Shown: positions 2,525 through 39,262, numbered from the stretch's first letter. The stretch is DNA of 64,000 nt from Candidatus Buchananbacteria bacterium CG10_big_fil_rev_8_21_14_0_10_33_19 (GCA_002773855.1 PEZY01000005.1:122532-186531), one strand, 5' to 3'. The notes: generated from the letters alone by a model not told the origin. Numbers and translations: made by a program.

Positions 2525-2554
2525 AATATTATATTTATATAGTTTTAATTTTAT

Positions 2555-11745: not shown

Positions 11746-12626
11746 TGAAAAAAATTACTATTATATTAGCCTGTTTATCATTGTTATTAATATGGTCTAA
11801 TAACTACGTCTTAGCCGCTGATGCAGATTTACCAGTCACCACACCAGCTGAAGTCACAAAAAATTGTGATAACTGTCTTAATGTCCCTATCGGTGGAGTC
11901 AAAACCATACCAAGTTTTTATGAATACATACAATTATGGTATAGTTTTGTGGTCGGTGTAGTTGGCATAATAGCCACGGTTATTATTATGTGGGGTGGTT
12001 TTAAATGGCTCACCTCTCGAGGTAATGCGGCAGCCATTGGTGATGCTAAAGATAGAATTTGGTCGGCGATTATTGGTTTAGTTTTAGTTTTTTTATCTTA
12101 CAATTTATTATATTTAATTAATCCAGAATTAGTTAAAATAAAACTACCAAGTCTCACAACCATTTCTACTACCAATTCACCAACTCATTCATCAAATAAT
12201 CAACCGCCAACTCACCCCGCTGAAGGAGCTAAGTTTGATTTAGAAGCTTTGAAAAAAACCTGTCTAGACGCTATTACCGTTACTGGAGCTGGCTTAAACT
12301 GTAATAGGTTAAATATATCTGGTCCAGTCTACGAAGCTACACTACTAGGATCTAGCGAAATGGGTTATTGGTATAATATTAACGACAATCTTTTAGAAGG
12401 TGTTCAAGAAATAGTTAACCTAATTGGTCAACCTCAAACCATTGAAGGTGTTGATGTTTATGTTATGCCAGGCACTAATCTGGCCTTTAGGGAAATAGAC
12501 AATAATATTTGGCGAGTCGAGACCACTAACCTTGTTGGTTTAATGTTGGAACAAGACACTAATAGCCAAAACATAGTCGCCTGGCCAATGGATATCTGGA
12601 ATAATCTTCATAATATACCAAACTAA
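11745..12626 (+). CDS. T4SS-pilin-like protein (paralogue of 10630..11745 without the SLT domain)
   Basis: Same ~60-aa hydrophobic pilin-like core, near-identical at the DNA level. Different C-terminal domain. Confidence 0.6.
   Translation: MKKITIILACLSLLLIWSNNYVLAADADLPVTTPAEVTKNCDNCLNVPIGGVKTIPSFYEYIQLWYSFVVGVVGIIATVIIMWGGFKWLTSRGNAAAIGDAKDRIWSAIIGLVLVFLSYNLLYLINPELVKIKLPSLTTISTTNSPTHSSNNQPPTHPAEGAKFDLEALKKTCLDAITVTGAGLNCNRLNISGPVYEATLLGSSEMGYWYNINDNLLEGVQEIVNLIGQPQTIEGVDVYVMPGTNLAFREIDNNIWRVETTNLVGLMLEQDTNSQNIVAWPMDIWNNLHNIPN
11938..12124 (+). repeat. Near-identical ~187-bp tract shared by the two pilin-like genes (copy 2)
   Basis: See copy 1. Confidence 0.85.
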
Positions 12627-17012: not shown

Positions 17013-17068
17013 GGGTATAATTTTTAGTAAAAAATATTCATAATATTTTTTAAATAAAGCATTAACTG

Positions 17069-17158
17069 CAGAGAGGAAGGGATTCGAACCCTCGATACGC
17101 TTTAAAAACGTATAACGGATTAGCAATCCGTCGCTTTCAACCACTCAGCCACCTCTCT
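17069..17158 (-). tRNA. tRNA-Ser (anticodon GCT), 90 nt with long variable arm
   Basis: Acceptor AGAGAGG/CCTCTCT, anticodon stem ACGGA/TCCGT with loop TTGCTAA, long variable arm, T-loop TTCGAAT. Confidence 0.8.
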
Positions 17159-17594: not shown

Positions 17595-18299
17595 TCAACC
17601 TTTAATCAAAACTAGGCCCCACACCTTCTGATAGCCATATTCTTTTAACGTCTTAGCACATTCCTCCATAGTCGAACCAGTGGTATAAACATCATCCACT
17701 ATTACCAGTGTTTTATTAAAATCTACTAAACATCTATCATTAACCGCAAAACTATCAACTATATTCAATTTTCTTTGTTTAGCATTTAATCCAACTTGAT
17801 GACGATGATATTTTACCTTGGCCAACAATTGATTATTAATAATATTACCCTTAACTTCTCCTATAATATTAGATATAATCTCTGATTGATTAAAGCCCCT
17901 CTCCAAAAATCTTCGACGATGAAGTGGCACTGGCACTAAAACAAAATAATCCCGCCAATTGGGATTATTATTTATACAACTAAATATTTTAGGTTTAATA
18001 TAATTTAAAAGCTCAGTAATAAAATTGTACTTAACCAAATGTATTATTTTTTGATTTAACTGACTATTTTCCAAGACAACCATTAAACCATCAAGATTGG
18101 AATTTTTACGACAAAAGCCACAAACTGCACCATTACTATTTTCAACCTCACAAATAGGACATAAATTGTAATTATCTCGCTTAACCAAATCTAGGCATTT
18201 ATTACAAAGCCAATCACCTTCTAGCGAACAATAAATGCACTTCATTGGAAATACCAAATCTAAAACAAAATTTTTAATTCTATTGCCATTTTGCCTCAT
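17595..18299 (-). CDS. comFC: ComF family protein (double zinc-ribbon plus phosphoribosyltransferase-like domain)
   Basis: N-terminal Cys pairs (CIYCS...CNKC...CPIC), C-terminal PRTase motif VIVDDVYTTGSTM, 234 aa. Confidence 0.7.
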   Translation of the reverse strand: MRQNGNRIKNFVLDLVFPMKCIYCSLEGDWLCNKCLDLVKRDNYNLCPICEVENSNGAVCGFCRKNSNLDGLMVVLENSQLNQKIIHLVKYNFITELLNYIKPKIFSCINNNPNWRDYFVLVPVPLHRRRFLERGFNQSEIISNIIGEVKGNIINNQLLAKVKYHRHQVGLNAKQRKLNIVDSFAVNDRCLVDFNKTLVIVDDVYTTGSTMEECAKTLKEYGYQKVWGLVLIKG

Positions 18300-18852
18300 C
18301 TACTTGCCAATCATTACCACTCTTAATTAGAGTTAATTCCACCTTAGAATAATCAATAGTTGGTTCTATTTGATCGTCGCTATATTTACTTAACTGTAAG
18401 GATACTAATATAACTGCTTGATTATCAGTTAATAATATTAATTTATTATTTAAAGCCTTAGCTTCTTGAGCTTCATAGCCATCCTGTCCAATATTGGAAG
18501 TACTAATGAAATCATTTATATAGGCTATCATCTTAGAAGATGATAATATTTTTAAATCTTGTAAGTTTTTAAACTTAGCATCGCTAGAATAACTGCCGAA
18601 TCTTTCAGCATAAGAAGAGGCCAACGATTCCAAACCCAATGGGTAGTCTTCTTCATTTTTAACTCTATCTAGACTTGGTGCTGGCAAAGTTTTAATGGTA
18701 TCAGTCATTGGAGCCTGATTTTGATTGTTATTAACAACTGGCAAATCAGCAACAGGCGATTTTTTATTAAATAATCTAAAAATTAAAAATAAAATTACTA
18801 TAATCAATACAATAACTGCCACCATTAAAATTATTTTCTTTTTTCTTTCCAT
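18280..18852 (-). CDS. Hypothetical membrane-anchored protein (190 aa, N-terminal TM). Part of the T4SS-like operon.
   Basis: ORF overlapping the comF start by 20 nt. No recognisable domain. Confidence 0.45.
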   Translation of the reverse strand: MERKKKIILMVAVIVLIIVILFLIFRLFNKKSPVADLPVVNNNQNQAPMTDTIKTLPAPSLDRVKNEEDYPLGLESLASSYAERFGSYSSDAKFKNLQDLKILSSSKMIAYINDFISTSNIGQDGYEAQEAKALNNKLILLTDNQAVILVSLQLSKYSDDQIEPTIDYSKVELTLIKSGNDWQVDEAKWQ

Positions 18853-18878
18853 GACACTTAAAATAAATAAATTAATTA

Positions 18879-20777
18879 TTATTCTTGAGATAAAGATTCC
18901 TCAAATTCCTTTTTAGCTTCTTCGATTTCTAATAACTGTCTAGGATCAGAAGTAATCAATTGGTCTTCTGAATAAGAAGCTACCACCTTAATAGCCGCAT
19001 GTTTAGCTCCAGCAAAAAATATACCCTCACCTACACCACACTCTAATAATAAATATTTTTCACCCTCTGTTAATAAAAATGTTTTTTGGATTAAATCCAC
19101 TGCAGCTGGTGACTGTTTCATCAATAATTGAAGTGATGAGTTATTAACAATAGCTTGACCATAAGGCGAAGTTAAAAAATCATTAACATCCTGAGTAATA
19201 GTCGTTACACCTAAATAATATTTTCGACATCTTTTAACTAGAGCGAATATAAACTTAGCACTATCTTCTCTTTGCATTAACCACCAAGCCTCATCAACAA
19301 CTAATATTCTCTTTTTAAGTTCACTTCTTACTACATTCCAAACATAATTAACAATCGTATAAATTGCTAGTGGCTTTAATTCATCCTCTAAATCTCTCAC
19401 GCTAAAAGCTACTAATTTATTGTTCATCTGAACATTAGTTGGATTGTTCAATAAGCCGGCAAATGTACCTTCAGTATATTTTTTTAATCTTAAAACTATG
19501 TTTTCACCATTTTCCATGCCTTCTAAAATTTCCTGAAAATCCTGCATAACTGGTGGCTCAACTCTAGTTAAATCAGCTGAAGCGGTAATATCTTTTTTGG
19601 CATAAGTCTCTAGTAGCGCTCGATCAATAATCGAATCTTCTTCTGGAGTAATATCACCAATCATTAATTTAATTAAGCCCTTTACAGTAATTACACCGCC
19701 TCTAATAATATCATCGGCTTTAGCATCTTCGCCAATTGATCTTGGCAAATCAAAAGGATTAATTTTACTTTCGGAGTTTAGTGACACGTCAATATAGGTT
19801 CCGCCAACAGCATCACAAAGATGTTTATATTCTCTTTCTGGGTCGATAATAATAACCTCTGTACCAAACATCAAGCTTCGCAGCACTTCTAATTTAATAG
19901 TGTAAGATTTACCAGCGCCAGAAGTTGCAAAAACTACAGAATTAGCATTTTGCAAAGAAAACCTGTCAAACAAAATTAAACTATTATTATGACGATTAAT
20001 ACCAAACAACACACCACCATCAGAAGTTAAATCAGAAGACACAAACGGAAAAGAACTAGCCGCTGGTGAAGTATTCATATTAGTCAAAATTTGTAAATCA
20101 TCAGAAGCAATCGGCAATGTAGAATTAAAGCCCTGTTCTGCCTGATAAAACACTCTCCTAGAATAAACTAATGTTGAACCTAGTATATTTTCTATGTTCT
20201 CACAAGAAGTGTCTAATTCTTCTAAGCTCTTACCGTAAACTGTGATGTACATAGCTGTTTGGAAAAAATGTTCCACACCTTGAGTTAAATCATCTCTTAA
20301 TTTTTCCATATCTCGTAGTGCCGTTTCTCGCAGTGGATCACGTGGAGCCCCTTTTTCCGCATCAGAAATTAATCCAGCCTGTAGAGCACCAACCTTCTTC
20401 TTTAATTGTTTTAAAATAACTGAAGCCTTAACCGGATAAAAGTAAATAGCAATATCAGCAGTAGTATCCATATTAATAATCGGCGCAAACCAACCAACAT
20501 TAATATATCTTGGATACTCAATCACAAATATAGTTTTAATAAAATAATCACCCAATTTAATATACGAACTAGTTACCTCCAGTGAGGCCGGCGAAATTAA
20601 ATCTCGAACAGAGACAACCCCTTGACGATAAACACGCTCTTCTTCCAAGATTTTACGACTATCACCAATATCCTGAACCATCATCGCTTTTCTTTGCTGG
20701 GCGTTTAAAGCTTGGGCTTTTTCCTGTTCTAATTGTTTTATTTTATCAACTTGATTTAACTGATTCGGATCAAACAT
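18879..20777 (-). CDS. VirB4/TrbE/CagE-family type IV secretion ATPase
   Basis: Walker A FATSGAGKS, Walker B-like ILVVDEAWWLM (the DEAW motif typical of VirB4), 632 aa. Confidence 0.7.
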   Translation of the reverse strand: MFDPNQLNQVDKIKQLEQEKAQALNAQQRKAMMVQDIGDSRKILEEERVYRQGVVSVRDLISPASLEVTSSYIKLGDYFIKTIFVIEYPRYINVGWFAPIINMDTTADIAIYFYPVKASVILKQLKKKVGALQAGLISDAEKGAPRDPLRETALRDMEKLRDDLTQGVEHFFQTAMYITVYGKSLEELDTSCENIENILGSTLVYSRRVFYQAEQGFNSTLPIASDDLQILTNMNTSPAASSFPFVSSDLTSDGGVLFGINRHNNSLILFDRFSLQNANSVVFATSGAGKSYTIKLEVLRSLMFGTEVIIIDPEREYKHLCDAVGGTYIDVSLNSESKINPFDLPRSIGEDAKADDIIRGGVITVKGLIKLMIGDITPEEDSIIDRALLETYAKKDITASADLTRVEPPVMQDFQEILEGMENGENIVLRLKKYTEGTFAGLLNNPTNVQMNNKLVAFSVRDLEDELKPLAIYTIVNYVWNVVRSELKKRILVVDEAWWLMQREDSAKFIFALVKRCRKYYLGVTTITQDVNDFLTSPYGQAIVNNSSLQLLMKQSPAAVDLIQKTFLLTEGEKYLLLECGVGEGIFFAGAKHAAIKVVASYSEDQLITSDPRQLLEIEEAKKEFEESLSQE

Positions 20778-20789
20778 AAATAAAATTTA

Positions 20790-21467
20790 TTAATATTGTT
20801 CAATATCTAATTTATTAACATCAGACATTTTTTGATTTTCAGACATTACTGGATTGTAGGTATTATAAAACAATTCAATAAGTGATTGGGTATTTAAAAT
20901 TGACGCCCTCAGACCCATACTAGACAAGCCAGAAACTATTTTATCAACACCAATAAATAAATCCTTATGGCGCTTAGCAAATTCTCTTTGATTTAACTTA
21001 ATTAACGTTGTTGGTGACACTATATCACTACTTCTCTGCCAAAAATTTCTTTTCTTGCCAAATGATGGATTATAATAAACTACTACATAGAATCTTTTGG
21101 TCATAATATCACCCAATTCTACTAATTCAGAAATATATTTACGATATTCAGCTGTTTGTAATTTTAACAGATCATTGGTCTGTTCTTGCTCAGCTTTTTT
21201 AATATCTAACAAATAATTATCTAAATTTAATTTTCTAGACTGAATCACAATTTGTAATGTAGTATCTAAAGAATTTAAAAATGACACGTAGCCAGATATA
21301 ATGGCATTTTGTTCGTCTTCTGATTTAAGGGCAAAATTAATACTCGACACTAAAAGCACAGCTCTAAGTGTACCGTCTTTCATTACTACACTATCATCTC
21401 TAACCTCTGAAATAGTCATATAACTTTGAGTACTGGGTGTTGATTTTGTTGCTTTTCTATCCGCCAT
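20790..21467 (-). CDS. Hypothetical protein in the T4SS-like operon (225 aa)
   Basis: ORF tightly packed between VirB4 and a small membrane protein. No domain recognised. Confidence 0.45.
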   Translation of the reverse strand: MADRKATKSTPSTQSYMTISEVRDDSVVMKDGTLRAVLLVSSINFALKSEDEQNAIISGYVSFLNSLDTTLQIVIQSRKLNLDNYLLDIKKAEQEQTNDLLKLQTAEYRKYISELVELGDIMTKRFYVVVYYNPSFGKKRNFWQRSSDIVSPTTLIKLNQREFAKRHKDLFIGVDKIVSGLSSMGLRASILNTQSLIELFYNTYNPVMSENQKMSDVNKLDIEQY

Positions 21468-21489
21468 AATATAATTTATACCTAGTTTA

Positions 21490-21948
21490 TTATTTTAAAT
21501 CATTTATCGAATTAATTATACCCTCACCCTGATAAACGCCGCCAGTATCCACAATTAATGATAGCTCCGATAAATTTGAGGCATTAATAATCTGTCTTTT
21601 AATTTTGGGTACTACTATATTTACTTCTACTGGTTTTTTTAAGCTTAATTTAAGATCTTTTTCATTAACCACTTTTCGCCAAATCTTTAATTTGGGATTT
21701 TTTAAAGTAGCTATAAAATTAAGTAAAAAGTTATGAAAAGGCTGACCATTAATTTTAGCAAAAGCCACGATCATAGTTAAAGCAAACATCAAAAAACCAG
21801 ATACCACAAATGACGAAAAATAAAAAGATTTATAAAAGATAAAAATAATTATCGAACCAATTAAAATTTCAATAAACTGACGAACAGTAATTGGTCCAAT
21901 TATCTTATCTTCAACGTCCAAAAATTGTGGCACGGTTATTTGTTCCAT
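21490..21948 (-). CDS. Small two-TM membrane protein (VirB3/PrgI-like position immediately upstream of the VirB4 module)
   Basis: 152 aa with two adjacent hydrophobic helices. Gene order comparable to VirB3-VirB4 in T4SS loci; the similarity is positional only. Confidence 0.35.
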   Translation of the reverse strand: MEQITVPQFLDVEDKIIGPITVRQFIEILIGSIIIFIFYKSFYFSSFVVSGFLMFALTMIVAFAKINGQPFHNFLLNFIATLKNPKLKIWRKVVNEKDLKLSLKKPVEVNIVVPKIKRQIINASNLSELSLIVDTGGVYQGEGIINSINDLK

Positions 21949-21950
21949 TT

Positions 21951-23480
21951 TTAATACCTTAAATCTTTATTTAATTCCATCACCGAGTTAAATTCTTCTA
22001 TAGATAACGTAGGCTTACCATCTTGCATTCTTTCATTAATTATATCATCAATACCCCTTTCTTGTCGCATACTTTCTTGACCTAACAACCTGTAAAACCG
22101 ATTTACCTCGCTTTTATGCCAAGCATCTATGCCCTCCAATCTCTTAGCGTAAGAATCATTTTCTAATAGTTCTATCTTTTGCTTGATTTTAGCCGTAGCT
22201 TTGTGTGGTGTTTCACCAAGTCGTCTAAAATTAATCAAAGTCATAGTACTTAATTCTTCTATCGGCCCAACTAGAGCTCCACCGACTAAAACACCATCAA
22301 CTAATTTTTTACCAAACCTAATATTTTTTGGTGGTAAGCTAGACTGAGGCATTGGCTGTGGCTGTGGTACTGGTATGTTTTGCTTAATTTCTGGCTGAAC
22401 TGCTTTTAATTCAGTAACTACTGGTGATTTTGGTGTTTCTACTTTTTTAACCGAAGTAAACTTATCATGATTTAAATCAGTATTTAAATCATGATTTATT
22501 TTTGGAAATAAATTATTATTATCTAAATTAACCATTTTAGGCTTGACCATCAAATCATCACCATGAGGAAATTTAATAACCGGCAAACCATCCTCTTCTT
22601 CAATTATTAATTCAGTATGAATGGGTTGTTGCTTGATCGGTTTTTCGATAGTTTTTTCTATCACCATCTCTTCTACCTTTTTCGGCAGACTAATCGGTTG
22701 TTTGTTATCAATAGTTTTTTTAACATCCAAGCTAATTTTACCACGGGTAAATGGTTTTTTAGTCGGAAAAGAAATTGGTTTAACTCCATTTAAATCGCTA
22801 CCAATCTTAGACAATAAACCCTGATCAATTTTAGATTTAGCTAAGGCCACTATTTTTTTAGCCTGCTGGTCATCCATTTCTAAGCCACCAATTTTACGAC
22901 TCTTTTTTAAAGCTTCAATAGTTTCTATTTCATCTCTAATATCCTTTAATCTAGCGATAATGATATTTTTTAAACGACTAAACATTACTTCGTCACCATC
23001 CAAACTATAACCAGATTCTGATATTATTAACTCGGCCAAAGTAGTATAATCATAAACTTTAGCTGATGAATCAATATTAGAAATTATTTGCTTAATTTCT
23101 TCGTCATCGTCAGGAGAAAATGAAATAGAAGTATTTAAATTACTATCATTTTTTGGCAACTCAGTTTTTATTTCACTAGCCGCTGATCTGCCAAGCTCAG
23201 CCAATGCCTCTTCAACACCACTTATTCTATCCTTGATTGGTAATAACCTTTTTTCAATAGCGCTAATAGTAATTTTTTTTACCATTGAATCATCTTTTCT
23301 AATAACTTTTTTCATCTCTGAATAAAAATTTTTAATGTCAGCGCTACCAATAATTATTTTAGAAATTAATTTTATAATAGCTTTCACTTCGTTATCAGTC
23401 AAAGCAAACGGCGCCAACCAAGGGTTGAGCTTTTTTAATTCGACTACATCATCAAATATATTTTGAATTTCTTCGGCCAT
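21951..23480 (-). CDS. Hypothetical protein, Pro/Lys-rich central region (509 aa). T4SS-like operon member.
   Basis: Long ORF, no domain recognised. Low-complexity P/Q/K-rich linker. Confidence 0.45.
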   Translation of the reverse strand: MAEEIQNIFDDVVELKKLNPWLAPFALTDNEVKAIIKLISKIIIGSADIKNFYSEMKKVIRKDDSMVKKITISAIEKRLLPIKDRISGVEEALAELGRSAASEIKTELPKNDSNLNTSISFSPDDDEEIKQIISNIDSSAKVYDYTTLAELIISESGYSLDGDEVMFSRLKNIIIARLKDIRDEIETIEALKKSRKIGGLEMDDQQAKKIVALAKSKIDQGLLSKIGSDLNGVKPISFPTKKPFTRGKISLDVKKTIDNKQPISLPKKVEEMVIEKTIEKPIKQQPIHTELIIEEEDGLPVIKFPHGDDLMVKPKMVNLDNNNLFPKINHDLNTDLNHDKFTSVKKVETPKSPVVTELKAVQPEIKQNIPVPQPQPMPQSSLPPKNIRFGKKLVDGVLVGGALVGPIEELSTMTLINFRRLGETPHKATAKIKQKIELLENDSYAKRLEGIDAWHKSEVNRFYRLLGQESMRQERGIDDIINERMQDGKPTLSIEEFNSVMELNKDLRY

Positions 23481-23483
23481 GAT

Positions 23484-26126
23484 TTAAGTTATATCTTTTA
23501 ATTTATCATATTTCTTAGCCAATTCACTATTAGCTGGTAAACCTGCCTTTAAGCCTTCCAGTTCATCAACTATAGGCTTAACTAATAAACTACCATCTGT
23601 TGAAGCACTCAATCCCTTAATAACATTGGTGTCCAAATTTTCAGCGGCCATTCTTGTCTGTATTGTACTTTGAGTAAGATTTTTCATACTCTCCACATCT
23701 TTAACCGTAGACGTTGACATAATATCCTTTAATATTTGCCTTTTATTGTTATTTAACAATTTCTTTCCGGTTGGATCACTTGGATCAGTAGTCTCGTCTA
23801 TGCTACTTTCTTTAAATTTAGCGCCAGACATCAAAGCGTTCTTAATTTTAGCCCGTTGTTGTTCATTATTTTGTGGCGAAATATCAGTTTCTTCTATCTT
23901 ATTAATCACTGCTTCAAAACTCTTTTTTAACTTCTCTTGAATAGCTGGAGCTTGATCCTTAAACTGACTAGGCTTTATCAAATCACCAAAACTATCTACA
24001 AACTCTTCACTAACTTCTTTCATCTTCTTACCAATATCATTGCCATTATTAGACACAAAGGTTCTAATTGATTCCACATCTTCCTGGCTATTCTCGTCAA
24101 ATGTCTGCATGATATTATTAAAGTTGGTAACCTTATTAAATTTATCACGCTTCTTCTTGCCAGCATCAGTAATTTCTACTTTGCCAGTGTCTGGATTCTC
24201 TTTCTTTTTAAAACTCTCATGAGAAATATTGTCTTTATTCCAAATTTTTTCTCTAGATTCTTTTGATAAATTACCATTCATTTCACCCAAATCCTTCTCA
24301 CTAACATTTTCTAGCAAGAAATCAGCAATATTAATATTTTTATCTTTAAGTAATGACTTATTTAAATCAGCAATCTGCTCACTAGACAGCGCTGGAATCA
24401 TTTCATGAGCCTTGACCTTGCCAGTCTTAACATCTGAAACAAAAGCATCTGTTCTAAATTCTCCCTTATCATTTTTATAAACAGTATCATGGGCCAAGCC
24501 TGGATTATACTTCTTAGTATTTTCTTCAAAAGTAGAGGCTAATTCTGGTGGCAACATCTTCTTAGCATTATTAATCATCTTAATATTTTCATCTCGATTA
24601 ACCTTATCATCATCTCTAAACATACCTTGCTTCATCATCGCCTGAGTAGCCGCAATCTTGGCATATTTATCACCTTCCAAGGCTAATTTTCTTAATTCAC
24701 TCTCACTCTTGCCACCCAAATCCAAAGCCCCACTTCGTGCCGTAATCTTTTCTTGTTCCGCTTTAGCTTTGGTAGTAGCCAATTGAACCTTTCTTTGGTC
24801 AACTGCCTTACCAGCCATCGTACCTACGATTGGAATTCGTCTAGCCCCTGGAATAGCCGTTGCACCCCTTAAAGCCCCAGCACCAACAAGTCCAGCTGTG
24901 CCAAGAGTAGCCTTTTTACCCCATTTTTGTAAATTAGATACACCCTTGCCAGCCCACTCTCCACCCTTAACGCCAGTCTTTTGACCAGCAACTAAACTAC
25001 CCACCATTAAACCAATAATAATTAAAAAATCAAAGAATTTTACTGGGCTGTTTTGTAAATTAGTTAAACCTAATTTATCACCTAATAATTGTTCATCTAA
25101 TCGGACATTATCTTGCAATTGAAGACTTCCGGTTTCTGTAGTCACAGAAGCATTACCACTAGCACTGCTAGCATTATCAATATTAATAGAGCCACTAAAA
25201 AACGATAGATAAAGGAAAAATAACATCACCGGACCGACGACTAAATATTTAGCTAATTCACTCCACCACATCCCAGCATATTGTTGACCCTTAGGAAAAG
25301 TAGTTAGCAGAAAAGCGAGCGGCGATAAAATCACCAAGAACCATAACATCACAATTCTATACACTAAGACTATAGTAATCATCGCCATTACCACCACTGC
25401 TACTACTGATAATATCAAAGCAAAAAGTAAAGTTTTTAAAACCTCAGCTCCATTTAGTCCTCCACCGGGCAATGGATCAGTAAAATCTAAACCTGTTGTA
25501 TCTATGCGATACAAATTTTGTAAGCCTAAGGCTAACAAAATAATATTACCACCCTCACTAGTGCCCTTAATTGCTCCGGCCAACCACAAGGTAATGACCT
25601 GCGAAAAATCAATCAACACACCAGTAAAAACCTTAGAAAAATTAATCAAAACCGCCATCACTAGTAATTTTGGTAACAACTGACGATTATAATTTGGCAC
25701 TCTAAGTATAGTGCCCACGGCAATTACCAGTAAAATCACAATAAAAAAGTTATTAGCCACATCTCGCACAATACTCCAACCGTTTTTAACCACCTGAGTA
25801 TCCAAAAAATGATTGTAACTAGCCACATAGACCATTACACGAACAATTATATTAACCAACCAACTAAAAAAAGTAGCGATGTAAAACACAATCCAAGCTA
25901 AGACGTTAACAATGGAGTTTTCGGTACTGTCTGATTTATTTTGATCAATCGATGTAGCATCTGGTGGTGCACCATTTAAAGTTTGAGACAAAGCTTCTCG
26001 ATTAAACGAAACCTCGTCAGAAGTTTCAACAGCGCTTACATTATCAATAAACCCCAAAACCCCCACCACCAAAAAAGTAATTAGAATCAGAAGGCTAATC
26101 AGTTTTTTATTTTTTAAAATCATCAC
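23484..26126 (-). CDS. VirB6/TrbL-like polytopic membrane protein with a long charged C-terminal extension (880 aa)
   Basis: About 8 hydrophobic helices in the first ~400 aa, a Gly-rich segment, then a hydrophilic K/E-rich tail. Located next to VirB4. Confidence 0.5.
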   Translation of the reverse strand: MMILKNKKLISLLILITFLVVGVLGFIDNVSAVETSDEVSFNREALSQTLNGAPPDATSIDQNKSDSTENSIVNVLAWIVFYIATFFSWLVNIIVRVMVYVASYNHFLDTQVVKNGWSIVRDVANNFFIVILLVIAVGTILRVPNYNRQLLPKLLVMAVLINFSKVFTGVLIDFSQVITLWLAGAIKGTSEGGNIILLALGLQNLYRIDTTGLDFTDPLPGGGLNGAEVLKTLLFALILSVVAVVVMAMITIVLVYRIVMLWFLVILSPLAFLLTTFPKGQQYAGMWWSELAKYLVVGPVMLFFLYLSFFSGSINIDNASSASGNASVTTETGSLQLQDNVRLDEQLLGDKLGLTNLQNSPVKFFDFLIIIGLMVGSLVAGQKTGVKGGEWAGKGVSNLQKWGKKATLGTAGLVGAGALRGATAIPGARRIPIVGTMAGKAVDQRKVQLATTKAKAEQEKITARSGALDLGGKSESELRKLALEGDKYAKIAATQAMMKQGMFRDDDKVNRDENIKMINNAKKMLPPELASTFEENTKKYNPGLAHDTVYKNDKGEFRTDAFVSDVKTGKVKAHEMIPALSSEQIADLNKSLLKDKNINIADFLLENVSEKDLGEMNGNLSKESREKIWNKDNISHESFKKKENPDTGKVEITDAGKKKRDKFNKVTNFNNIMQTFDENSQEDVESIRTFVSNNGNDIGKKMKEVSEEFVDSFGDLIKPSQFKDQAPAIQEKLKKSFEAVINKIEETDISPQNNEQQRAKIKNALMSGAKFKESSIDETTDPSDPTGKKLLNNNKRQILKDIMSTSTVKDVESMKNLTQSTIQTRMAAENLDTNVIKGLSASTDGSLLVKPIVDELEGLKAGLPANSELAKKYDKLKDIT

Positions 26127-26147
26127 TTATTATTAAATTTGGTCTAA

Positions 26148-29100: not shown

Positions 29101-32100
29101 TCTGCTAATTGTTTGCGGTAACTAGCGTCGGCATCAAAAGACAAATAATCAGCGTTTCTTACTTTAACATTATCTGAAGATGGATTAATAGACCCGCGAT
29201 CATTAAACAAAACACAGCCGGAATTATAATCAACTAAACCATTACAACTAGTATAATCCACTTTATTAGACAAGGCATAATATACACCAGCTTGAACCAA
29301 ACTCAATTTAGCATCAACAACGTCTTTGGTTGGTAAATTAACATTAACACTACATGGCAAGCCAGAATTATCCACAATATAAAATCGACCAGTGGCTGAT
29401 TTTGGTGATGCTACTACACTAGCGCCACCAACATTCAAACTTAAATCCGGTGAAACAATAATACCATTACAACTAGGATCAATAGTAATATAAGATTTAT
29501 TAGTCAAAGATTCATCAACAGCTAGTGAATATAGAGTATGGGCTGACAAACTGATTGTTTGGTACCAATTAGTGCCACCATCATTCCAATGATCTGGCAC
29601 AGTATCTTCATCTACATCCTGTGATGTATCGGCATTCAAAATTTCATTTTTATAAACCTCGGTTGATGGATCTATGTATTCGGTACAACTATTTTGATCA
29701 GTTGGACAAGACCCTACCCAATTTTGATAAGTAATAGCTGGGCCTGGGTTTTCATTTGGCCATTCATTTTGACTAGGCAAACCATAACTATTAAACCAAC
29801 CCACTGGTTGTAACTTTTGATCAGAAGAGCCGGTGCCAATGGTTTGTAAATAAGTTACATCACAAGGCTGATTAGTACCCTTCTTATACCACTTAGCCTG
29901 AATCTGACCAGCGTCTGTCCGGTATTCACATAATTTATCTCGTGGATTTTTAAAATAAGAGACGCTTCTACTGCCTACAAATTCTTCACACCACAAAGCA
30001 TTAGCCTGACATAAATCAGTAGCATATCTGTCTGGTTGATTTTTTAGATAAACAGTATTATAGCCAATCACTTCATCCTGATTATTAATAGTTGGTAATC
30101 CTAAAGCCGAACAACCCTTACTATCTGAACCACAAGCGAATTTAGGGTCATTCACCATATAAACATAATTATCATTTGGTACTGTAACTTCTGATTTATC
30201 TCCATCATTAAAAGTGTCGCCAAAATAAGAATTAGAGTTATAAGTATCAATCAATTGTTCGCAACCCACAGCATCAGATCGACACAAATTTTCAAAAGAT
30301 TTCAAAAACCAATTTTGACCACTGCGGTCTCGATATTCCTGACAACCAATCATCTTGCCGGGATTACTTCTGATTGGGTTGAGAGCATCGCCAGTACCAT
30401 ATGGATCGTTAAGATTGTTATCACAAGTAAACGGTGTAAACCAAGAATTTTCAATAGCGTAAACACTTTGAGGCAATTCTTTTAAAAGAATATTATCTAT
30501 GTACACGGTTTTACCGCTAGGTATATTAATTTCAATATTTTGTTCAAAGTTACCAGTATTATTACCCCAATCAATAGTGACTGGGCCTAGTTCATAGCGA
30601 TTCCAATTAATAGTTAACGGTACTGGGATATCAGCTGTTGTGATAACGTCTGGATGTCCAATCATAAATGAACTTTCAGCTGGTGCTTCAGAAAATCTAA
30701 CCGAGCTTAAACTGATATTCTCGTCAGCCTTAGCCCAAAAACTAATCGAATAATTCTTACCTCTTTGAACTAGAACAGTTTTAGTAAATTGTTTTGAGTC
30801 ATTTATTGCATTACTAATAGAATTACCACCCGGATGAGTAGCTTCGCCCACCACAGTACCGCCCTGCCAACTAGAAATACCAGATTCAAAATCAGATAAA
30901 AATATATTTTTAAAACTATTACCTTGATTACCAGTGTATTCTCGACAACCTTTTAAGTTAGCCGAACAAGTGCCACCTTGATTGGGAATCGCCATATAAA
31001 TACACTCATTAAACGAATTCCAATAACCTTGGTTATTTCGACAATCTTGGGCTGCTTCACTGTCGTCATTTTGAGTTTGAGTTCGACGATATGGATGGCA
31101 ACTATTATCAACATAAATCACCCGAGACAATAAACGATAATGAATTGTGCCATCAATGTCATAAAATTCTCGACAATCCGGATTAGAATTTAAATCGGAG
31201 GCCAGACAAGCAGCATAATTTACGTCAGGATCACTACTTGGTGCTGGATCACTACAAACATTTTCACCAGCTAAATTATTTGGATAACTAATATTAGTAC
31301 ACGGAGCACTTGAATTATTGGATTCTTTAAGTTCAAAAACCCTAAGCTGATAACCAGTCGTATCACTACCCTCCCAAGTATAATAAGTAGCTTCATCGTC
31401 ATAAGCATCTGGTTTTTGACAAGTTCGTAGCTGAGTATAATATTCTAAAGCCTCACCACCTCTATCAATTTCATCTAAATTAGTAAATTCATCACAACCA
31501 ACAGCCGCGGCTGAACAAGCTTGAATGGGATCATTATTTATAAACTGTTTATATTTTGACGAAACAAAACTAGTTGGCTCTTGTTTATATACTTGATAGC
31601 CCACACATTCAGCTGGACAAACATCGGCCGAGGTAATAGTGCCTGGCACCGCTGGGTCTCCATTAGTTGGCGTATACAGTTCGCAATTCATTTCATCTTT
31701 AATACAAACACTAGAATAGCTAGAGCAAGCCGGATTACGATTTATAATAACTTGTTGCAAGCTAGTTAAACCAGTTGGCCATTGAATACCAGGGGTTACT
31801 AAATCAGAATCATAACAATTATAATAAGCTGGCGCTTTCTTCAGATAAGCTAATTGATAATCTGGCCGCTGACTAGGATCATAAGAAGTGTAAGCCGAAG
31901 GCAAAACCACTTCTGGCAAAACTTCTTCTAATTTAACGGCGTCAAAATAAACTTCTTTCTTACCTGTACCACCACCTTGTTCGATAGTTAATTTTGGTAT
32001 CACTATCTCGTCAGCTTTATTCCACACAAAACTAGTACTAATTGTAGTCCATTTATACAAATCTGCTTCTTTAAAATATTCTGGAGTAGTATTTATCGTC

Positions 32101-35100
32101 TGACCTCTTAGTCTAATGTAATAACGACCAATTTCTTGGGTATACACTCTAGCCGATAAAACATATTTTTGACCATTAATTAATGTTAGCGGTGATAAAG
32201 AGTTAGAGTTGGCTCCAATATAGGCACAAAAATTATTAGGCGCAGTAAAATCAGCTCGTAAACCAATAGCCTTGGAGCCATCAATACCGGAATTAACCGC
32301 GAATATTTCACAAGAAGTATGATTACCACCTTCAGCTGACCAATGACTTAAATCACCAAAATAATTTTCGAAACTACCATCATTAATTAAGTTACTACCC
32401 AAACCAGCTTTAACTCTAATAAACTGACTGCAACCACCAGCACTAGCATCACAAGTTTGAACATCACGATCAAAATATATTTCTGAATTTGCCTGATCTT
32501 TAGAGCCTAAATTAAGAGCGACATCACCAGTAGAACACGACTCAGGAGCCTCTCTTAAATCAAAATCGTCAAAGAAAACCGTGCCCACTGTCCCCGTGTT
32601 AGTAATTATTCTAATTTCTATCTTATCACCGGCTTGAATATTTTGAGTATTAAATTCCAGATCATATTTCTGCCAATTTTCATTAGGATTACCTATCGAT
32701 TTGTTACCCAATTCCAAAGTCGAAGATAACACTTTAATATCAAAACTACCTACACTAACAGAGCCCCTTAGATAGAAAGATAATTGATATTTTTTATTAG
32801 CTTCAACCCCCGAATCAAACTCTAAAGTAGTTTGTAGTGGATTAGGATTATTAAAACTCAAAGATTCCAAGGAATAGGAGCCAGTTCTCTTGCTAGTATT
32901 AGATCTAAACTGTCTATTATTGTCGTTCTGGTAACTCTCTACCCAAAAACGAGCATCGTAACTGGCACCACCAGTTAATTCAAAGCCACTATTAAATGGA
33001 GTTAAGATATTAACCGAACCCAAACATTTATCTAGCGAACATTCCACTCCACCATCAGGAATAGTGCAAGACTCACTAGAAAAATCACAACCATTAGCCA
33101 AAGTACAAACTTGCGCCATCACCACACCTTTATTTATTGAAGTAGCTGTTTGATCCCATTGATCAACTACTAAACCAGACACCACACAACCACTAGGATT
33201 GGTACAAGTTTTTAAAATTTGTTCACTATCAGTATTCAACCAAGTGCCATCAACAGTATTATAGAAAGTACTATACCACCGACAACCAGCCGACTGAGCA
33301 TCACAATCTCGATAATCTAAAGTATTAGATAAATAAGATCCGGTACTGCCATTTTGTGATTGAAAAGTTTGGCAAGTATTAAAACGAGGTTCACATTTTG
33401 GCGCATTTAAATTCCAAACCTTTCGCTCTTCAGTACAATAACCATAGGCCGTACAATTACCATTTTCATCCTCGCTAACACATTGTTGCTCATCAGCACA
33501 ATATTGTGTCCTCTTAACAGATCCATCTTGAGAGCTGGCCCGATCATTATGAGCGCCGTAACCTTCACGACGACAAAATAATTCTGGTGCTTTTAACACC
33601 CATTGAGGATCAATTAAATTCTCAAAGACTGAACCGTCATTATTAAAAGATTTAACCAAATCACCCAAGGTGTAAGATTTATGCTCATCATGAGCATTGC
33701 TAATGTACCGAGCGGCAATTTCCCAACCCACTGGCACAATTCTATATTTTCTTAAAATAACAATGTTTCTCAAAGAAAAAGATTCTTGAGGATTAACAGT
33801 TGATAGTGCTGGCACAAATTGTCTGTTTAATATTGATTCTGGCAAATCTTTAATTAAAGTCTTCTCTCTAATTAATTTAGACAAAATAGGATCAATCACA
33901 CAATCAGTTGGGCCGGGATTAATTTTGTTGGCCTCAGTACAAGCTGTTAATTTATTTAAAATATTATAAGGACCACCAACAGTTATTTCACTTTCAATTA
34001 AATTTAAAAACCTGGCTTCAGCCCCAATTGAACCTTCAACATATGGTGAGGATTCTGGATTAAGTAAAGACGCAAATCTAGATAAATCTGGCAGATTAAA
34101 ATTATTACCGTTACTATTACCACTAGTAAAGTAACCATCTTTTAAATTTTGCAACAATTGACCAACCAAACTATTTAAAAATGTTTCCACAAAATCCCAA
34201 ACTGTACCAGTAAAAACTGTGTCCTGCTTACCAGCCCGAGACAATGCTTCACGTTGTTGATCTCTAATCATTGTACCTGGTGTCAAAATCCAGCCAGTTA
34301 AACTCTTTAGATCCTTATAACCATTATTAATAGAAGCCTCCAAAGCTGAAACGCCAGTTTCCTTTTTAACCTTATCCATCAAAGACGAGCTAGTCTTTAA
34401 ATAAATACCAATATCGTTTTCACTGGCTTTTAAATAATTACTATACTCCACCGAAAAACTAGCATCGTTAATCGCTGATCGCCAATTATTGACCATGCCC
34501 GTAAAATTACAACTTGGCTTAGCCGGTTGATAACCCCGCAAACTAGTTTTAATCATTAATTCCACGTTAAAATTTGGTCGACATAAATTAACCCCAAATT
34601 CCTTATCAATTTCATCAATAAAAGTTCCCGCCGCATTGTCAGCGGTATTCTTTAGATAAGCACCAATACCTTCGGTGATAAACAATGGCTTTTGCCCCTT
34701 ACCGCCAGAAGCAATCCAAGATGCAGTATCGTAAGCTAATTGCTTGGAAAACACACTCAACATTGATTTCCAGGCTCCAGCCAAAGTGTCTTTCCAAGTT
34801 TGCTTTTCTATGTCTCTTAAATCATCAGCGGCTATTTGTATTGAGCCAGTTTTTGTTATTAATATATTTTGACAATTGTAAAGAGTAATTGTGCTTTGTA
34901 TCTGTGCCACTATAGCTGGCGCACACGTACCAGTGCCATTGACAAACTCACAGGAGTTACTAGCTAATGCTGCTGTAGCAGCATTAGTACAAGCCTCAGC
35001 CGCAGATATCGCCGCCCCAGAGCCAGCACTAGCTTCAGCTGCAGCGTTAAGCAACAAGGCTGTAGCAGCAGGCCCAGTAGCGTTACTATAATTAATATGA

Positions 35101-35159
35101 CCAAAAAATAAAAATATTGGTACTATTAGAAATAAAATTTTAAATCTAAATTCTTTCAT
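26148..35159 (-). CDS. Giant secreted protein (3003 aa): signal peptide, Cys-rich modules and several CBM4/9-like galactose-binding-like domains (ending ...VFFDDFDLRE, ...VYFDAVKLEE, ...VYIDNILLKE)
   Basis: Uninterrupted 9-kb ORF. Hydrophobic N-terminus followed by an A-rich segment. Repeated ~150-aa units ending in the hydrophobic-F/Y-D-D/N-hydrophobic-x-L-x-E signature typical of CBM_4_9-type beta-sandwiches. Very high Cys/Asn/Ser/Thr/Gly content. Confidence 0.65.
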   Translation of the reverse strand: MKEFRFKILFLIVPIFLFFGHINYSNATGPAATALLLNAAAEASAGSGAAISAAEACTNAATAALASNSCEFVNGTGTCAPAIVAQIQSTITLYNCQNILITKTGSIQIAADDLRDIEKQTWKDTLAGAWKSMLSVFSKQLAYDTASWIASGGKGQKPLFITEGIGAYLKNTADNAAGTFIDEIDKEFGVNLCRPNFNVELMIKTSLRGYQPAKPSCNFTGMVNNWRSAINDASFSVEYSNYLKASENDIGIYLKTSSSLMDKVKKETGVSALEASINNGYKDLKSLTGWILTPGTMIRDQQREALSRAGKQDTVFTGTVWDFVETFLNSLVGQLLQNLKDGYFTSGNSNGNNFNLPDLSRFASLLNPESSPYVEGSIGAEARFLNLIESEITVGGPYNILNKLTACTEANKINPGPTDCVIDPILSKLIREKTLIKDLPESILNRQFVPALSTVNPQESFSLRNIVILRKYRIVPVGWEIAARYISNAHDEHKSYTLGDLVKSFNNDGSVFENLIDPQWVLKAPELFCRREGYGAHNDRASSQDGSVKRTQYCADEQQCVSEDENGNCTAYGYCTEERKVWNLNAPKCEPRFNTCQTFQSQNGSTGSYLSNTLDYRDCDAQSAGCRWYSTFYNTVDGTWLNTDSEQILKTCTNPSGCVVSGLVVDQWDQTATSINKGVVMAQVCTLANGCDFSSESCTIPDGGVECSLDKCLGSVNILTPFNSGFELTGGASYDARFWVESYQNDNNRQFRSNTSKRTGSYSLESLSFNNPNPLQTTLEFDSGVEANKKYQLSFYLRGSVSVGSFDIKVLSSTLELGNKSIGNPNENWQKYDLEFNTQNIQAGDKIEIRIITNTGTVGTVFFDDFDLREAPESCSTGDVALNLGSKDQANSEIYFDRDVQTCDASAGGCSQFIRVKAGLGSNLINDGSFENYFGDLSHWSAEGGNHTSCEIFAVNSGIDGSKAIGLRADFTAPNNFCAYIGANSNSLSPLTLINGQKYVLSARVYTQEIGRYYIRLRGQTINTTPEYFKEADLYKWTTISTSFVWNKADEIVIPKLTIEQGGGTGKKEVYFDAVKLEEVLPEVVLPSAYTSYDPSQRPDYQLAYLKKAPAYYNCYDSDLVTPGIQWPTGLTSLQQVIINRNPACSSYSSVCIKDEMNCELYTPTNGDPAVPGTITSADVCPAECVGYQVYKQEPTSFVSSKYKQFINNDPIQACSAAAVGCDEFTNLDEIDRGGEALEYYTQLRTCQKPDAYDDEATYYTWEGSDTTGYQLRVFELKESNNSSAPCTNISYPNNLAGENVCSDPAPSSDPDVNYAACLASDLNSNPDCREFYDIDGTIHYRLLSRVIYVDNSCHPYRRTQTQNDDSEAAQDCRNNQGYWNSFNECIYMAIPNQGGTCSANLKGCREYTGNQGNSFKNIFLSDFESGISSWQGGTVVGEATHPGGNSISNAINDSKQFTKTVLVQRGKNYSISFWAKADENISLSSVRFSEAPAESSFMIGHPDVITTADIPVPLTINWNRYELGPVTIDWGNNTGNFEQNIEINIPSGKTVYIDNILLKELPQSVYAIENSWFTPFTCDNNLNDPYGTGDALNPIRSNPGKMIGCQEYRDRSGQNWFLKSFENLCRSDAVGCEQLIDTYNSNSYFGDTFNDGDKSEVTVPNDNYVYMVNDPKFACGSDSKGCSALGLPTINNQDEVIGYNTVYLKNQPDRYATDLCQANALWCEEFVGSRSVSYFKNPRDKLCEYRTDAGQIQAKWYKKGTNQPCDVTYLQTIGTGSSDQKLQPVGWFNSYGLPSQNEWPNENPGPAITYQNWVGSCPTDQNSCTEYIDPSTEVYKNEILNADTSQDVDEDTVPDHWNDGGTNWYQTISLSAHTLYSLAVDESLTNKSYITIDPSCNGIIVSPDLSLNVGGASVVASPKSATGRFYIVDNSGLPCSVNVNLPTKDVVDAKLSLVQAGVYYALSNKVDYTSCNGLVDYNSGCVLFNDRGSINPSSDNVKVRNADYLSFDADASYRKQLADNDQKPIPPEFVTAPDTGDSNVILKVQPDRACYNWLYCTTYEKDDPDNVDPIYGNNDRCLNLGLCASVDENGVCTNFILKSNLVTNEEYTLKDVNKTGYTSVGYKFLDNQKVTGYYPYYEMFQHGDSADVTNGSFESVVGSSAEPIGWSPVSPGLDTATYKSETSGWQDYEFVVAKDVIGSPDGSRYLIVNSFYEALSEEIDVFSDSTYILSGWINSAGLNYSDKSKIIKSQIQYRQHNKNGGWGNWEIKSELSLDSGLPWTKKIYEFTSLPNTDKIQIKLKNYINLSNLSNPASACANANNKSSCNVCDDNNKLTPCELGGVALFDDISLKPVLEVSDSTVPTEKYVSRTCRIYPAEDSLSCRYLEGNNLFYGNYGYCLLVDPANSKQCLQWWPVDQLEGEVLNEVGGYNDRVPLDYCVDKKSFNVSFSEFGYALTLSSDAKEVVAGFVDTNTGTQMNFSSFKIKDDFRPLFRYPYVKEIKTRVSGIGYTKDNTIYAMIPVNLTFKYDTTKKEWGSWGAIPVCGKLIDAGDFGVAVCFAVELNWDDATKNYGEVIAGLTATYNSKFSNGTLAFGPLMGLKIIDDSQSDSITGSGVSDPIPDLPGDILGAAWFVRSTAEADVIGITMNVSGNFDVGYCDNLVRVVNTSGENKAYANRVAKGSGYINIDRNAKPDAPLSEWIDGVDLIDGSYYYYDPFDYNKFLDAATQNKEYQSSDYQPFGALVSPPGSSNPSNWSSREGIYNTPLLYEPPRLGGFQAPYQARMGELHTQKGLEQLFAQSYGEWWWRWNVCGDTAAQTPTSPCQTPDTERGGSYIEREDLTTSYLTVPLNICNEATRDASSNQPCHINPLVKEIKINNVNSTEPVTPVINRGVGLAKLAFSTQIDPDQLPITAYTIKWGDGEHSKVSGVSLRNRTNIENPFLLYHLFDFWKVKSVTPTTCNAGATNIPCCTKDSCKIKVDIKVYDNWNYYNTSEDSIRLDVNKN

Positions 35160-35164
35160 ATAAA

Positions 35165-36052
35165 TTAATTGCCGGGGGAGTTTAATTTAGTTAAAAACAT
35201 ACTTCTTAATTGCTCATCACTCACTTGTGCCAATGTATCAGCTGGCGCCCCTTGGTCGATCATTAATTGTCTAATCTGAGCGCCAGTTAAATTTTGCAGT
35301 TCAGACAAAGACAATGATCCCAAATTACCAGTGCCAACTGCACCAGTACCACTATCAGTAGTTGGATTTTGACCAGCTATCGCCTGCTGATAAGTAGACA
35401 GCAACTGCTCATCGGTAATACTATCTAATTGCGTTTTAGGAAAACCATTTTTTAGTAGTAATTCTCTTAAGACTGTCGGATCAGATTGGGCATTTAAAAG
35501 TGTAGTTTGATCAGCCTGACTTAAATCCTGAGACAAACCAGTCTCAACCCTAAAACAAGTATCACTACCAGGACAATTAGGATCATGGCCACCGTCAATT
35601 TCTTCCTTATCAGAAATACCATCACTGTCACTATCAGCTAAATACGGACTAGTGCTATAAACATTAAGTTCGTCATAATCAGACAAGCCATCACCATCTG
35701 TGTCTTTTTGTTGCTGGGCTAAAACAGTGGAAACTTCGTTAGATATACTATCACCATTGGCAGTCAATGCCATTAAATCGTTTAAAGGCTTTTTAGCAGA
35801 GGTAGAAAATTGAGTAACACCTAAAATAATGGCAAAAAAAGCAGTAATTAAAACAAAAGCCACAGTGACTTTTTCTTTGGTTGATCTGGTATCAGCAGAA
35901 GTATTGTTATTTACATCTAGAAATTCGTATTCATTTTCTGATTGTAAATACTCTGTTGATTGTTCTCTATTAAACTGATTTTCACCTTCCATCAAGTGTG
36001 GATAAACAGTTAAGTACAAATTAATTATAACACAAAAAGCTACTTTGAACAA
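35165..36052 (-). CDS. Membrane-anchored protein with thrombospondin-type-3-like Ca-binding repeats (DTDGDGLSDYDE, DSDSDGISDKEE). The true start may be the internal MEGENQ.
   Basis: One TM helix. Two DxDxDGxxDxxE repeats. First gene of the long minus-strand operon. Confidence 0.45.
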   Translation of the reverse strand: MFKVAFCVIINLYLTVYPHLMEGENQFNREQSTEYLQSENEYEFLDVNNNTSADTRSTKEKVTVAFVLITAFFAIILGVTQFSTSAKKPLNDLMALTANGDSISNEVSTVLAQQQKDTDGDGLSDYDELNVYSTSPYLADSDSDGISDKEEIDGGHDPNCPGSDTCFRVETGLSQDLSQADQTTLLNAQSDPTVLRELLLKNGFPKTQLDSITDEQLLSTYQQAIAGQNPTTDSGTGAVGTGNLGSLSLSELQNLTGAQIRQLMIDQGAPADTLAQVSDEQLRSMFLTKLNSPGN

Positions 36053-39247: not shown

Positions 39248-39262
39248 GAGTGAAAATTATGT

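Follow-up and report, generated by a model that had tools for sequence, protein, structure and literature searches.

Gene content and organization of the locus

A 64,000-nt stretch of the genome of Candidatus Buchananbacteria bacterium CG10_big_fil_rev_8_21_14_0_10_33_19 (GCA_002773855.1, PEZY01000005.1:122532-186531), hereafter the window, carries on its minus strand a run of genes encoding a type IV secretion system (T4SS). We take the Buchananbacteria to belong to class ABY1 of the Patescibacteria, following GTDB. The run encodes a membrane translocon consisting of a VirB6-like channel protein, PrgI/VirB3, a TrsD-like protein, the VirB4 ATPase and a protein of the VirB8 fold. It is headed by the genes for a small membrane protein with TSP3 repeats and for a giant secreted protein, and this TSP3-giant-virB6 cassette is conserved across a large clade.

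Nine open reading frames (ORFs), all intact, lie on the minus strand between 36052 and 17595. According to the ORF coordinates they are separated, in order, by 5, 21, 3, 2, 22, 12 and 26 nt, with a single 20-nt overlap between the comF-type gene and the virB8-like gene; these gaps are too short to leave room for further ORFs. An earlier note on this DNA had counted eleven genes where nine were found, and the gaps that it gave, from -20 to +27 nt, agree with those computed here. The tight packing it described is correct, whereas the extent it assigned, 36052 to 17595, is too narrow, the co-directional stretch reaching from 40300 to 14308. On the 5' side the run continues through ksgA, two genes for transporters of the major facilitator superfamily (MFS) and femAB, and on the 3' side through two tRNA-Ser genes, a conserved small ORF, tRNA-Arg and recG. 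The GC content is low in the window (0.26-0.38) and even, at 0.30-0.38, for the locus. In a consensus scan compared with shuffled sequence, neither promoter-like sites (93 versus 85 ± 10) nor terminator-like sites (16 versus 10 ± 3.4) were enriched, and the scan gives nothing firm on operon boundaries.

The TSP3-giant-virB6 cassette

The giant protein of 3003 aa (26148..35159, minus strand) was recognized by its signal peptide, matches to the carbohydrate-binding module (CBM) family CBM_4_9, a Cys-rich motif and synteny. A signal peptide is predicted at its N terminus, and the 3003-aa sequence contains no second transmembrane (TM) segment and no LPxTG motif. The helical conserved N-domain spans about aa 100-600. 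With the Pfam family CBM_4_9 the whole protein scores 34.4 bits (cut-off 25.9), and three to four CBM_4_9-like domains are distinguished, at aa ~730-870, ~920-1055 and ~1415-1560, with a possible one, recognized by eye, at ~2190-2330. The protein contains 88 cysteines and 11 copies of the Cys-rich motif C-x4-7-[GWSN]C. Comparison with two orthologues at 66% identity showed that 84 of the 88 cysteines are conserved; the N-domain (aa 100-600) has the highest identity (76-90%) and the C-terminal third the lowest (40-76%). A C-terminal domain of ~140 aa is shared with a 512-aa protein encoded in a related locus, L005.

The family defined by the N-domain is large. A profile of this domain matched 2314 cluster representatives at E<=1e-3, of which 1160 at E<=1e-30, and the best 150 of them are nearly all 2400-3900 aa long with the domain at the N terminus. 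Pfam and PDB sequence/profile searches gave no match for the N-domain, and PDB sequence/profile searches gave nothing significant for the C-terminal 1084 aa. Two N-domain proteins of only 830-890 aa (P0142 and P0145) were considered as real short paralogues and rejected; they are most likely frameshift or assembly artefacts, since the strings of ORFs behind them add up to the giant length and other genes there are split too. Likewise, in loci L007 (10001-19992) and L008 (250-9157) the giant gene is split into 4-9 consecutive ORFs totalling the giant length; L007 also has split leuS and uvrA genes, which makes these breaks look like assembly frameshift errors.

Upstream of the giant gene lies a gene (35165..36052, minus strand) for a small bitopic membrane protein with one TM segment and bacterial TSP3 (Ca-binding) repeats (TSP3_bac, 27.8 bits, cut-off 25). 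The TTG start at 36052 is doubtful and an in-frame ATG at 35992 appears to be the likelier one; it would leave a spacer of 85 nt after ksgA. This spacer holds a candidate promoter (36024..36052, minus strand), recognized by sequence pattern only, with a -35 element TTGTTC (36052-36047), a 17-nt spacer and an extended -10 element TGTTATAAT (36032-24). It was read by eye and scores under the threshold of the consensus scan.

Downstream of the giant gene, the VirB6/TrbL-like polytopic membrane protein (23484..26126, minus strand) was identified by its TrbL score and TM prediction. It has ~6-7 TM segments within aa 1-400, followed by a charged, poorly conserved C-terminal tail of ~480 aa. The TrbL family scores 24.1 bits on the whole protein and 29.7 bits on its N-terminal 460 aa (cut-off 25.9). 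TrbL is matched by six of ten orthologues, and the orthologues align over the N-terminal half only. A profile search of PDB sequences with the VirB6 N-domain gave no significant match.

Conservation of gene order, which the earlier note had named as a check, was followed mostly through VirB4-anchored look-ups and a metagenome scan; a VirB6-based scan of a genome collection gave 4 loci only. The order is kept in 8 related genomes or contigs with VirB4 proteins 73-93% identical, together with the housekeeping flanks, which in the window are ksgA, leuS, recG, radA and tRNA genes. In seven of these 8 VirB4-anchored loci the gene upstream of VirB6 encodes a giant, with lengths from 2573 to more than 3320 aa. 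Among the best 80 of 361 giant-anchored metagenome loci (N-domain identity 31-67%), 29 of the 30 that could be evaluated encode VirB6 downstream of the giant, and 58 of 59 encode a TSP3 homologue directly upstream of it, counts that overstate the independence of the observations because some of the loci are near-duplicates from related samples.

Unrelated genes have been inserted into the T4SS gene order: a S-adenosylmethionine (SAM) synthetase gene in L006 (6351-7514), a GIY-YIG nuclease gene in L010 (12053-12352) and flavokinase and cytidylyltransferase genes in L011 (5302-7062). The cluster therefore tolerates insertions without loss of order. L002 (CAYIBK010000004.1) also carries this T4SS locus, and its VirB4 shares 93% identity with that of the window; the record is titled "uncultured Gammaproteobacteria bacterium" and is probably a mislabelled or contaminated bin.

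Alternatively, the TSP3 protein and the giant might serve the cell envelope in general, in an S-layer-like or glycan-scavenging role, have no functional tie to the T4SS and stand beside it through inherited synteny. The giant has its own signal peptide for the Sec pathway, and the order ksgA-TSP3-giant is about as conserved as giant-VirB6: ksgA is found upstream in 43 of 48 giant-anchored loci, so housekeeping neighbours are also retained. In many loci the giant and VirB6 are set apart, by up to 3.1 kb, through one to three intervening genes, and no homologue of the giant N-domain was found among 72,556 plasmid records, many of them with conjugative T4SSs. Inherited synteny accounts less well for the persistence of a same-strand VirB6 downstream of the giant over 31-67% N-domain identity, while SAM synthetase and GIY-YIG genes come and go, and for the gaps of only 5 and 21 nt in the window, where no terminator-like hairpin separates the TSP3, giant and virB6 genes. 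A DsbA is encoded in the same locus as this protein of 88 cysteines, and the conjugative plasmid pCF10 provides a precedent for surface adhesin genes leading a T4SS operon. On balance we regard an independent envelope role as unlikely, and a functional tie between the cassette and the T4SS as the better reading.

Components of the translocon

The gene following virB6 (21951..23480, minus strand) encodes a conserved 509-aa component of the locus, with orthologues at the same position in all 8 related loci. Its conserved parts are a helical middle segment and a C-terminal domain of ~110 aa; an EEEDGLPV motif and Pro-rich linkers are also present. It has no TM segment, and no match to it was found in Pfam or NCBIfam, even at E<=1, or in PDB sequence/profile searches.

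Next, adjoining the virB4 region, is the gene for a VirB3-like protein of the PrgI family (21490..21948, minus strand; Pfam PrgI, 33.1 bits, cut-off 27) with two TM segments. It is followed by the gene for a TrsD-like protein (20790..21467, minus strand), a separate polypeptide resembling the N-terminal domain of VirB4. The NCBIfam match to TrsD (E 3.2e-9, 36.9 bits) is under the curated cut-off of 200, and the orthologues carry the precomputed Pfam annotation PF26593, TraC-like. Two VirB4 models are matched by the TrsD-like protein, CD1110 at positions 6-108 and VirB4_plasma at 98-235, and the product of the next gene, VirB4, aligns to positions 143-729 of the CD1110 model; since the two adjacent genes cover consecutive model positions, the former looks like a separately encoded N-terminal part of VirB4. 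That it is a piece of a frameshifted VirB4 pseudogene was rejected, because the two-gene layout occurs in every related locus and a separate TrsD resembling the VirB4 N-domain has already been described (PMC12102498).

The VirB4 ATPase (18879..20777, minus strand) belongs to the monoderm, MPF-FATA-type CD1110 family (NF045971, 353.4 bits, cut-off 325; P-loop_TraG, 105 bits) and contains the Walker A motif GAGKS and the Walker B motif VVDEAW. Its identity as a HerA/FtsK protein was rejected, DUF87/HerA scoring 29.5 bits against 353 bits for VirB4 CD1110. The protein is 100% identical to proteins of Candidatus Buchananbacteria CG10 and Falkowbacteria assemblies, and the 120 closest proteins listed come, where named, from Patescibacteria lineages or just from a "bacterium." Its best plasmid relatives are monoderm CD1110-type conjugation ATPases (29-36% identity). 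The locus appears to descend from monoderm conjugation machinery of the MPF-FATA type.

The product of the gene at 18280..18852 (minus strand), 190 aa in length, shows the features of a bitopic protein of the VirB8 fold, with an N-terminal TM helix and an NTF2-like domain. PDB sequence/profile searches with it gave nothing significant.

Pilins, lytic transglycosylase and DsbA on the plus strand

Further T4SS components are encoded on the plus strand, in a module convergent with the minus-strand run and separated from it by radA and recG only. The first gene (9896..10630) encodes a membrane-anchored DsbA-like thiol-disulfide oxidoreductase (Thioredoxin_4, 82 bits; DSBA, 61 bits). The second (10630..11745) encodes a VirB2-like pilin fused to an SLT lytic transglycosylase, the VirB1-like component (T4SS_pilin, 34.8 bits; SLT, 65.1 bits), and the third (11745..12626) a second VirB2-like pilin (T4SS_pilin, 38.3 bits; TrbC/VirB2, 23.9 bits) with a C-terminal extension of ~160 aa that has no known fold; the cut-off for T4SS_pilin is 26.6 bits. 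The pilin/SLT genes (10630-12626) lie ~6-8 kb from virB4. They are followed by radA (12628..13974, plus strand) and, convergent with it, recG (14308..16359, minus strand), both identified through Pfam.

Over 166 aligned residues the two pilins share 53% identity, with near-identity around the hydrophobic core, and they differ in their C-terminal extensions, SLT in the one and ~160 aa unlike it in the other. A pilin-hydrolase fusion is unusual for a T4SS. The hydrolase partner can differ in relatives: the domain carried by one pilin is a phage-type lysozyme in L005 and SLT in L010.

The layout DsbA-pilin(s)-radA recurs in L005 and L009, pilin genes with radA occur in L010, and DsbA is kept beside the pilin genes in L005, L009, and L011. 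The radA/recG neighbours are also present in L005, L006, L009, L010, and L011. The presence of DsbA and the conservation of 84 of 88 giant cysteines suggest a dedicated oxidative-folding helper for the giant or for Cys-containing pilin extensions.

Two further plus-strand genes adjoin the module. A 416-aa protein with an N-terminal TM segment (8638-9888) is kept in L005, L006, and L011, and its orthologues carry faint precomputed Pfam beta-propeller marks (Tricorn_2nd in L006, Beta-prop_THOC3 and Tricorn_2nd in L011). The neighbouring 217-aa membrane protein (7958-8611) gave no family match.

Overall, the parts encoded in the window, VirB1, 2, 3, 4, 6, and 8 plus TrsD, make up the full monoderm-type complement. 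The family scans bear out most of the assignments in the earlier note: the TSP3-repeat protein, the giant secreted protein with CBM-like domains, a VirB6/TrbL-like polytopic protein with a long charged tail, a VirB4-type ATPase with a DEAW Walker B motif that does not turn into HerA/FtsK, and a protein of ComF architecture (described below). Its view of a T4SS-type apparatus that lacks a relaxase and a coupling protein in the window and is tightly linked to the giant CBM protein and to comF also holds. It had, however, regarded VirB4 and VirB6 as the only recognizable secretion components and the apparatus as minimal, and neither description can be kept: T4SS folds are present among the neighbours of the ATPase, including the VirB3- and VirB8-like ones that it suspected to be hidden (21490-21948 and 18280-18852), as is the TrsD-like protein, and the plus-strand pilins, SLT and DsbA at 9896-12626 complete the set.

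Absence of conjugation and diderm components from the window

The family scans (Pfam and NCBIfam) were run on all ORFs of 100 aa or more in the window. Within this scope no relaxase, type IV coupling protein (T4CP; VirD4/TcpA) or integrase family was detected, and no family corresponding to VirB7/9/10 or VirB11, in agreement with the earlier note, which had listed VirD4, relaxase and VirB9/10/11 as absent. No flanking repeats of the kind that mark a mobile element were found in the 64 kb. The T4SS genes are chromosomal and stand among housekeeping genes with no relaxase or coupling protein nearby, consistent with a non-conjugative apparatus.

One may ask whether the locus is an integrated conjugative element, cryptic or in decay, with its relaxase, coupling protein and integrase recently lost or located beyond the window. 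The closest characterized relatives of VirB4, at the 29-36% identity given above, are conjugation ATPases of plasmids and integrative and conjugative elements of Bacillota and Actinomycetota, and an ancient transfer from monoderms was inferred by others (PMC12102498). Such an element is highly improbable here: beside the lack of integrase, relaxase, T4CP and flanking repeats in the 64 kb, the GC content is even, the nine ORFs are intact, and the same chromosomal neighbours persist in genomes with up to 27% difference in VirB4. Of the proteins of the locus VirB4 shows the strongest conservation, with 90-93% identity versus ~60% for most others, which indicates purifying selection and not decay. 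The housekeeping and tRNA flanks, the even GC content and the order kept in 8 genomes or contigs point instead to a chromosomal location and vertical inheritance of the T4SS.

ComF and the possibility of DNA uptake

The last of the nine genes (17595..18299, minus strand) encodes a ComF-type protein with a double zinc ribbon and a phosphoribosyltransferase domain. The scores are at the Pfam cut-offs (DZR_2, 27.5 bits, cut-off 27; Pribosyltran, 26.3 bits, cut-off 26.3), and TIGR00201 comF matches with E 1.2e-26 and 93.8 bits, far under its cut-off of 233.55. The gene directly follows the virB8-like gene in seven of 8 related loci, and this linkage is lost in L011.

Helicobacter pylori ComB is a T4SS without relaxase and coupling protein that is used for a non-conjugative purpose and has a proposed link to competence genes. 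It is a diderm system with homologues of VirB7/9/10, which were not found in the window, and to our knowledge it has no giant adhesin partner. ComB has been cited as a precedent for the Patescibacteria T4SS, and uptake of DNA or nucleotides has been raised as a candidate role (PMC11665869). The locus could encode a DNA-uptake machine like ComB or the archaeal Ced system, with ComF, RadA, and RecG processing the DNA and the giant providing contact only. The overlap of comF with the virB8-like gene, the lack of a relaxase and T4CP in the window, as in ComB, and the conserved neighbours radA and recG, for which functional coordination in ABY1 was suggested (PMC12102498), are consistent with this. 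The NCBIfam match to the Ced component CedB (E 5e-12) is far under its cut-off (45 versus 700 bits), and no ComEC or DprA is encoded within the window.

Genetic data from Saccharibacteria also bear on the question. In Southlakia epibionticum the T4SS is essential for epibiotic growth, whereas comEC, comF, and dprA were dispensable, not appearing as fitness genes in transposon sequencing, and it was possible to make a mutant with comEC deleted (Wang et al., 2023; PMC10633639). Transformation of this organism is accounted for by comEC alone (PMC10633639, PMC12857230). The Saccharibacteria data separate the essentiality of the T4SS from ComEC-dependent transformation (PMC10633639). These genetics and the lost comF linkage in L011 weaken the DNA-uptake explanation, to which we give a rather small chance, smaller than that of an independent envelope role for the giant. 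A T4SS acting in cell contact remains the preferred explanation.

Other genes of the window

Immediately 5' of ksgA, the region 36901-40300 (minus strand) contains two tandem overlapping MFS genes (393 aa each) and a gene for a FemAB-family peptidyltransferase. A mechanically called ORF of 209 aa (16515-17144, minus strand) overlaps a tRNA-Ser gene (17068-17158), so its true start has to be more internal. At this position, between comF and recG, a protein of ~166-169 aa that matches no family is kept in L001, L003, L005, L006, L009, and L010. No Pfam match at the thresholds used was obtained for ORFs of 790, 376, 504, 315, 245, and 308 aa, located at 152-3685, 41486-43948 and 49829-50566 (minus strand) and at 53338-54264 (plus strand); the 315-aa ORF has at most a weak transthyretin-like match.

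Comparison with known systems

Analysis of VirB4 phylogeny revealed a monophyletic Patescibacteria clade related to MPF-FATA, with TrsD, PrgI, VirB6, and VirB2-like pilins encoded near virB4 and a relaxase almost never (Quinonero-Coronel et al., 2025; PMC12102498). In the same survey VirB8 homologues were almost confined to class ABY1, ksgA was often found near the T4SS, and comF, recG, and radA were additional neighbours in ABY1. The locus described here shares with these systems the monoderm-type VirB4, TrsD, PrgI/VirB3, VirB6, VirB2-like pilins and a VirB1-like hydrolase, the lack of a nearby relaxase or T4CP, the chromosomal position beside ksgA, and the ABY1-specific comF, recG, radA, and VirB8. 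Since it matches the published Patescibacteria T4SS down to these neighbours, its core is already known (PMC12102498). It differs in having two pilins with large C-terminal extensions, one of them SLT, and not an array of short pilins, and in the 509-aa protein, which is not described in PMC12102498 or PMC10633639. The two papers make no mention of the TSP3 protein or the giant CBM protein, and the survey detected no adhesins such as PrgB (PMC12102498). The conserved TSP3-giant-VirB6 cassette, not found in the published descriptions of the Patescibacteria T4SS consulted here, is what this analysis adds, as a modest new lead.

Three other systems invite comparison. The prgQ operon of Enterococcus faecalis pCF10, the MPF-FATA prototype, encodes the surface proteins PrgA/B/C followed by the channel genes PrgD-L. 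The plasmid is conjugative, with a relaxase and a coupling protein, and we know of no VirB2-like pilins in it. PrgB, which is LPxTG-anchored and ~1300 aa long, has no sequence relation to the giant, and the giant lacks the LPxTG motif.

The "SPEARE" proteins of Nanohaloarchaeota (DPANN) are giants of 5,000-9,400 aa with Ig-like repeats and a VirB4/TraG-like ATPase fused in or encoded adjacent (PMC10266531). The common features are an ultrasmall obligate episymbiont, a giant adhesin-like protein tied to a VirB4-type ATPase, and a proposed binding to the host surface (PMC10266531). The likeness is probably thematic and convergent, the two being set side by side by theme and not by sequence.

In the extended VirB6 proteins of Rickettsiales, too, a polytopic core is followed by a C-terminal extension that is long and hydrophilic (PMC12857230). 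In the present locus the extension is ~480 aa, charged and poorly conserved, and the giant is the product of a separate gene.

Proposed function of the cassette

Taken together, the locus is best explained as a chromosomal, vertically inherited T4SS of ABY1 Patescibacteria with the TSP3-giant cassette as its putative contact module, an explanation that we consider likely. The giant may be a Sec-exported, disulfide-rich host-binding module of a non-conjugative, contact-dependent T4SS. It would be exported by the Sec system via its signal peptide and then oxidized by the locus-encoded DsbA. Its conserved N-domain might dock on the T4SS or the TSP3 anchor or close by, and the variable, CBM-bearing distal part would project outward and bind glycans of the host cell. 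The T4SS itself would act in contact-dependent transfer, exporting effectors or importing macromolecules of the host, and not in conjugation, with ComF, RadA, and RecG next door processing any incoming DNA. The preference of the earlier note for host attachment or DNA uptake over plasmid transfer coincides with published proposals (PMC10633639, PMC12102498, PMC11665869).

Several observations weigh against this explanation. In L005 the giant is replaced by proteins of 666 and 512 aa, and in the giant-anchored locus L054 VirB6 is absent within 4.6 kb. The single CBM_4_9 domains are weak in a chunked scan (16.5-25.7 bits, E 1e-5 to 1e-2), and jelly-roll domains of this kind need not bind sugar. 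Docking of the N-domain is pure inference, and an AlphaFold2 model of aa 1-600 built from an 11-sequence alignment was unusable (pLDDT 41.8). The Sec signal peptide makes the giant independent of the T4SS for its export, and the adjacency of the two could reflect synteny around ksgA, not function. A T4CP, encoded elsewhere in the genome in many Patescibacteria (PMC12102498), could be so in this genome as well. The lineage is uncultured, and the localization and binding proposed for the giant are predictions.

A broader proposal is that the TSP3 protein and the giant are unrecognized core accessories of this T4SS and form its host-recognition module, with the N-domain docked to the apparatus of VirB6, VirB8 and the pilins and the distal part setting the host range. 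We put it forward tentatively, as a possibility somewhat better placed than each of the alternatives weighed above and still on the doubtful side.

The locus adds little to the catalogue of T4SS core parts, which have already been published. The Patescibacteria T4SS is essential in the one species tested, and reviews regard its role as unknown (PMC12857230, PMC11665869). If the giant is the element of host contact, the glycan specificity of its CBM domains could give a handle for host prediction, and its structure a route to understanding how contact with a second cell is made by a monoderm T4SS. Under the broader proposal above, the adhesin or host-recognition module that the 2025 survey reported as undetected (PMC12102498) would be supplied by the giant and the TSP3 protein, and the distal part of the giant would set the range of hosts of a very large, uncultured group of episymbionts.

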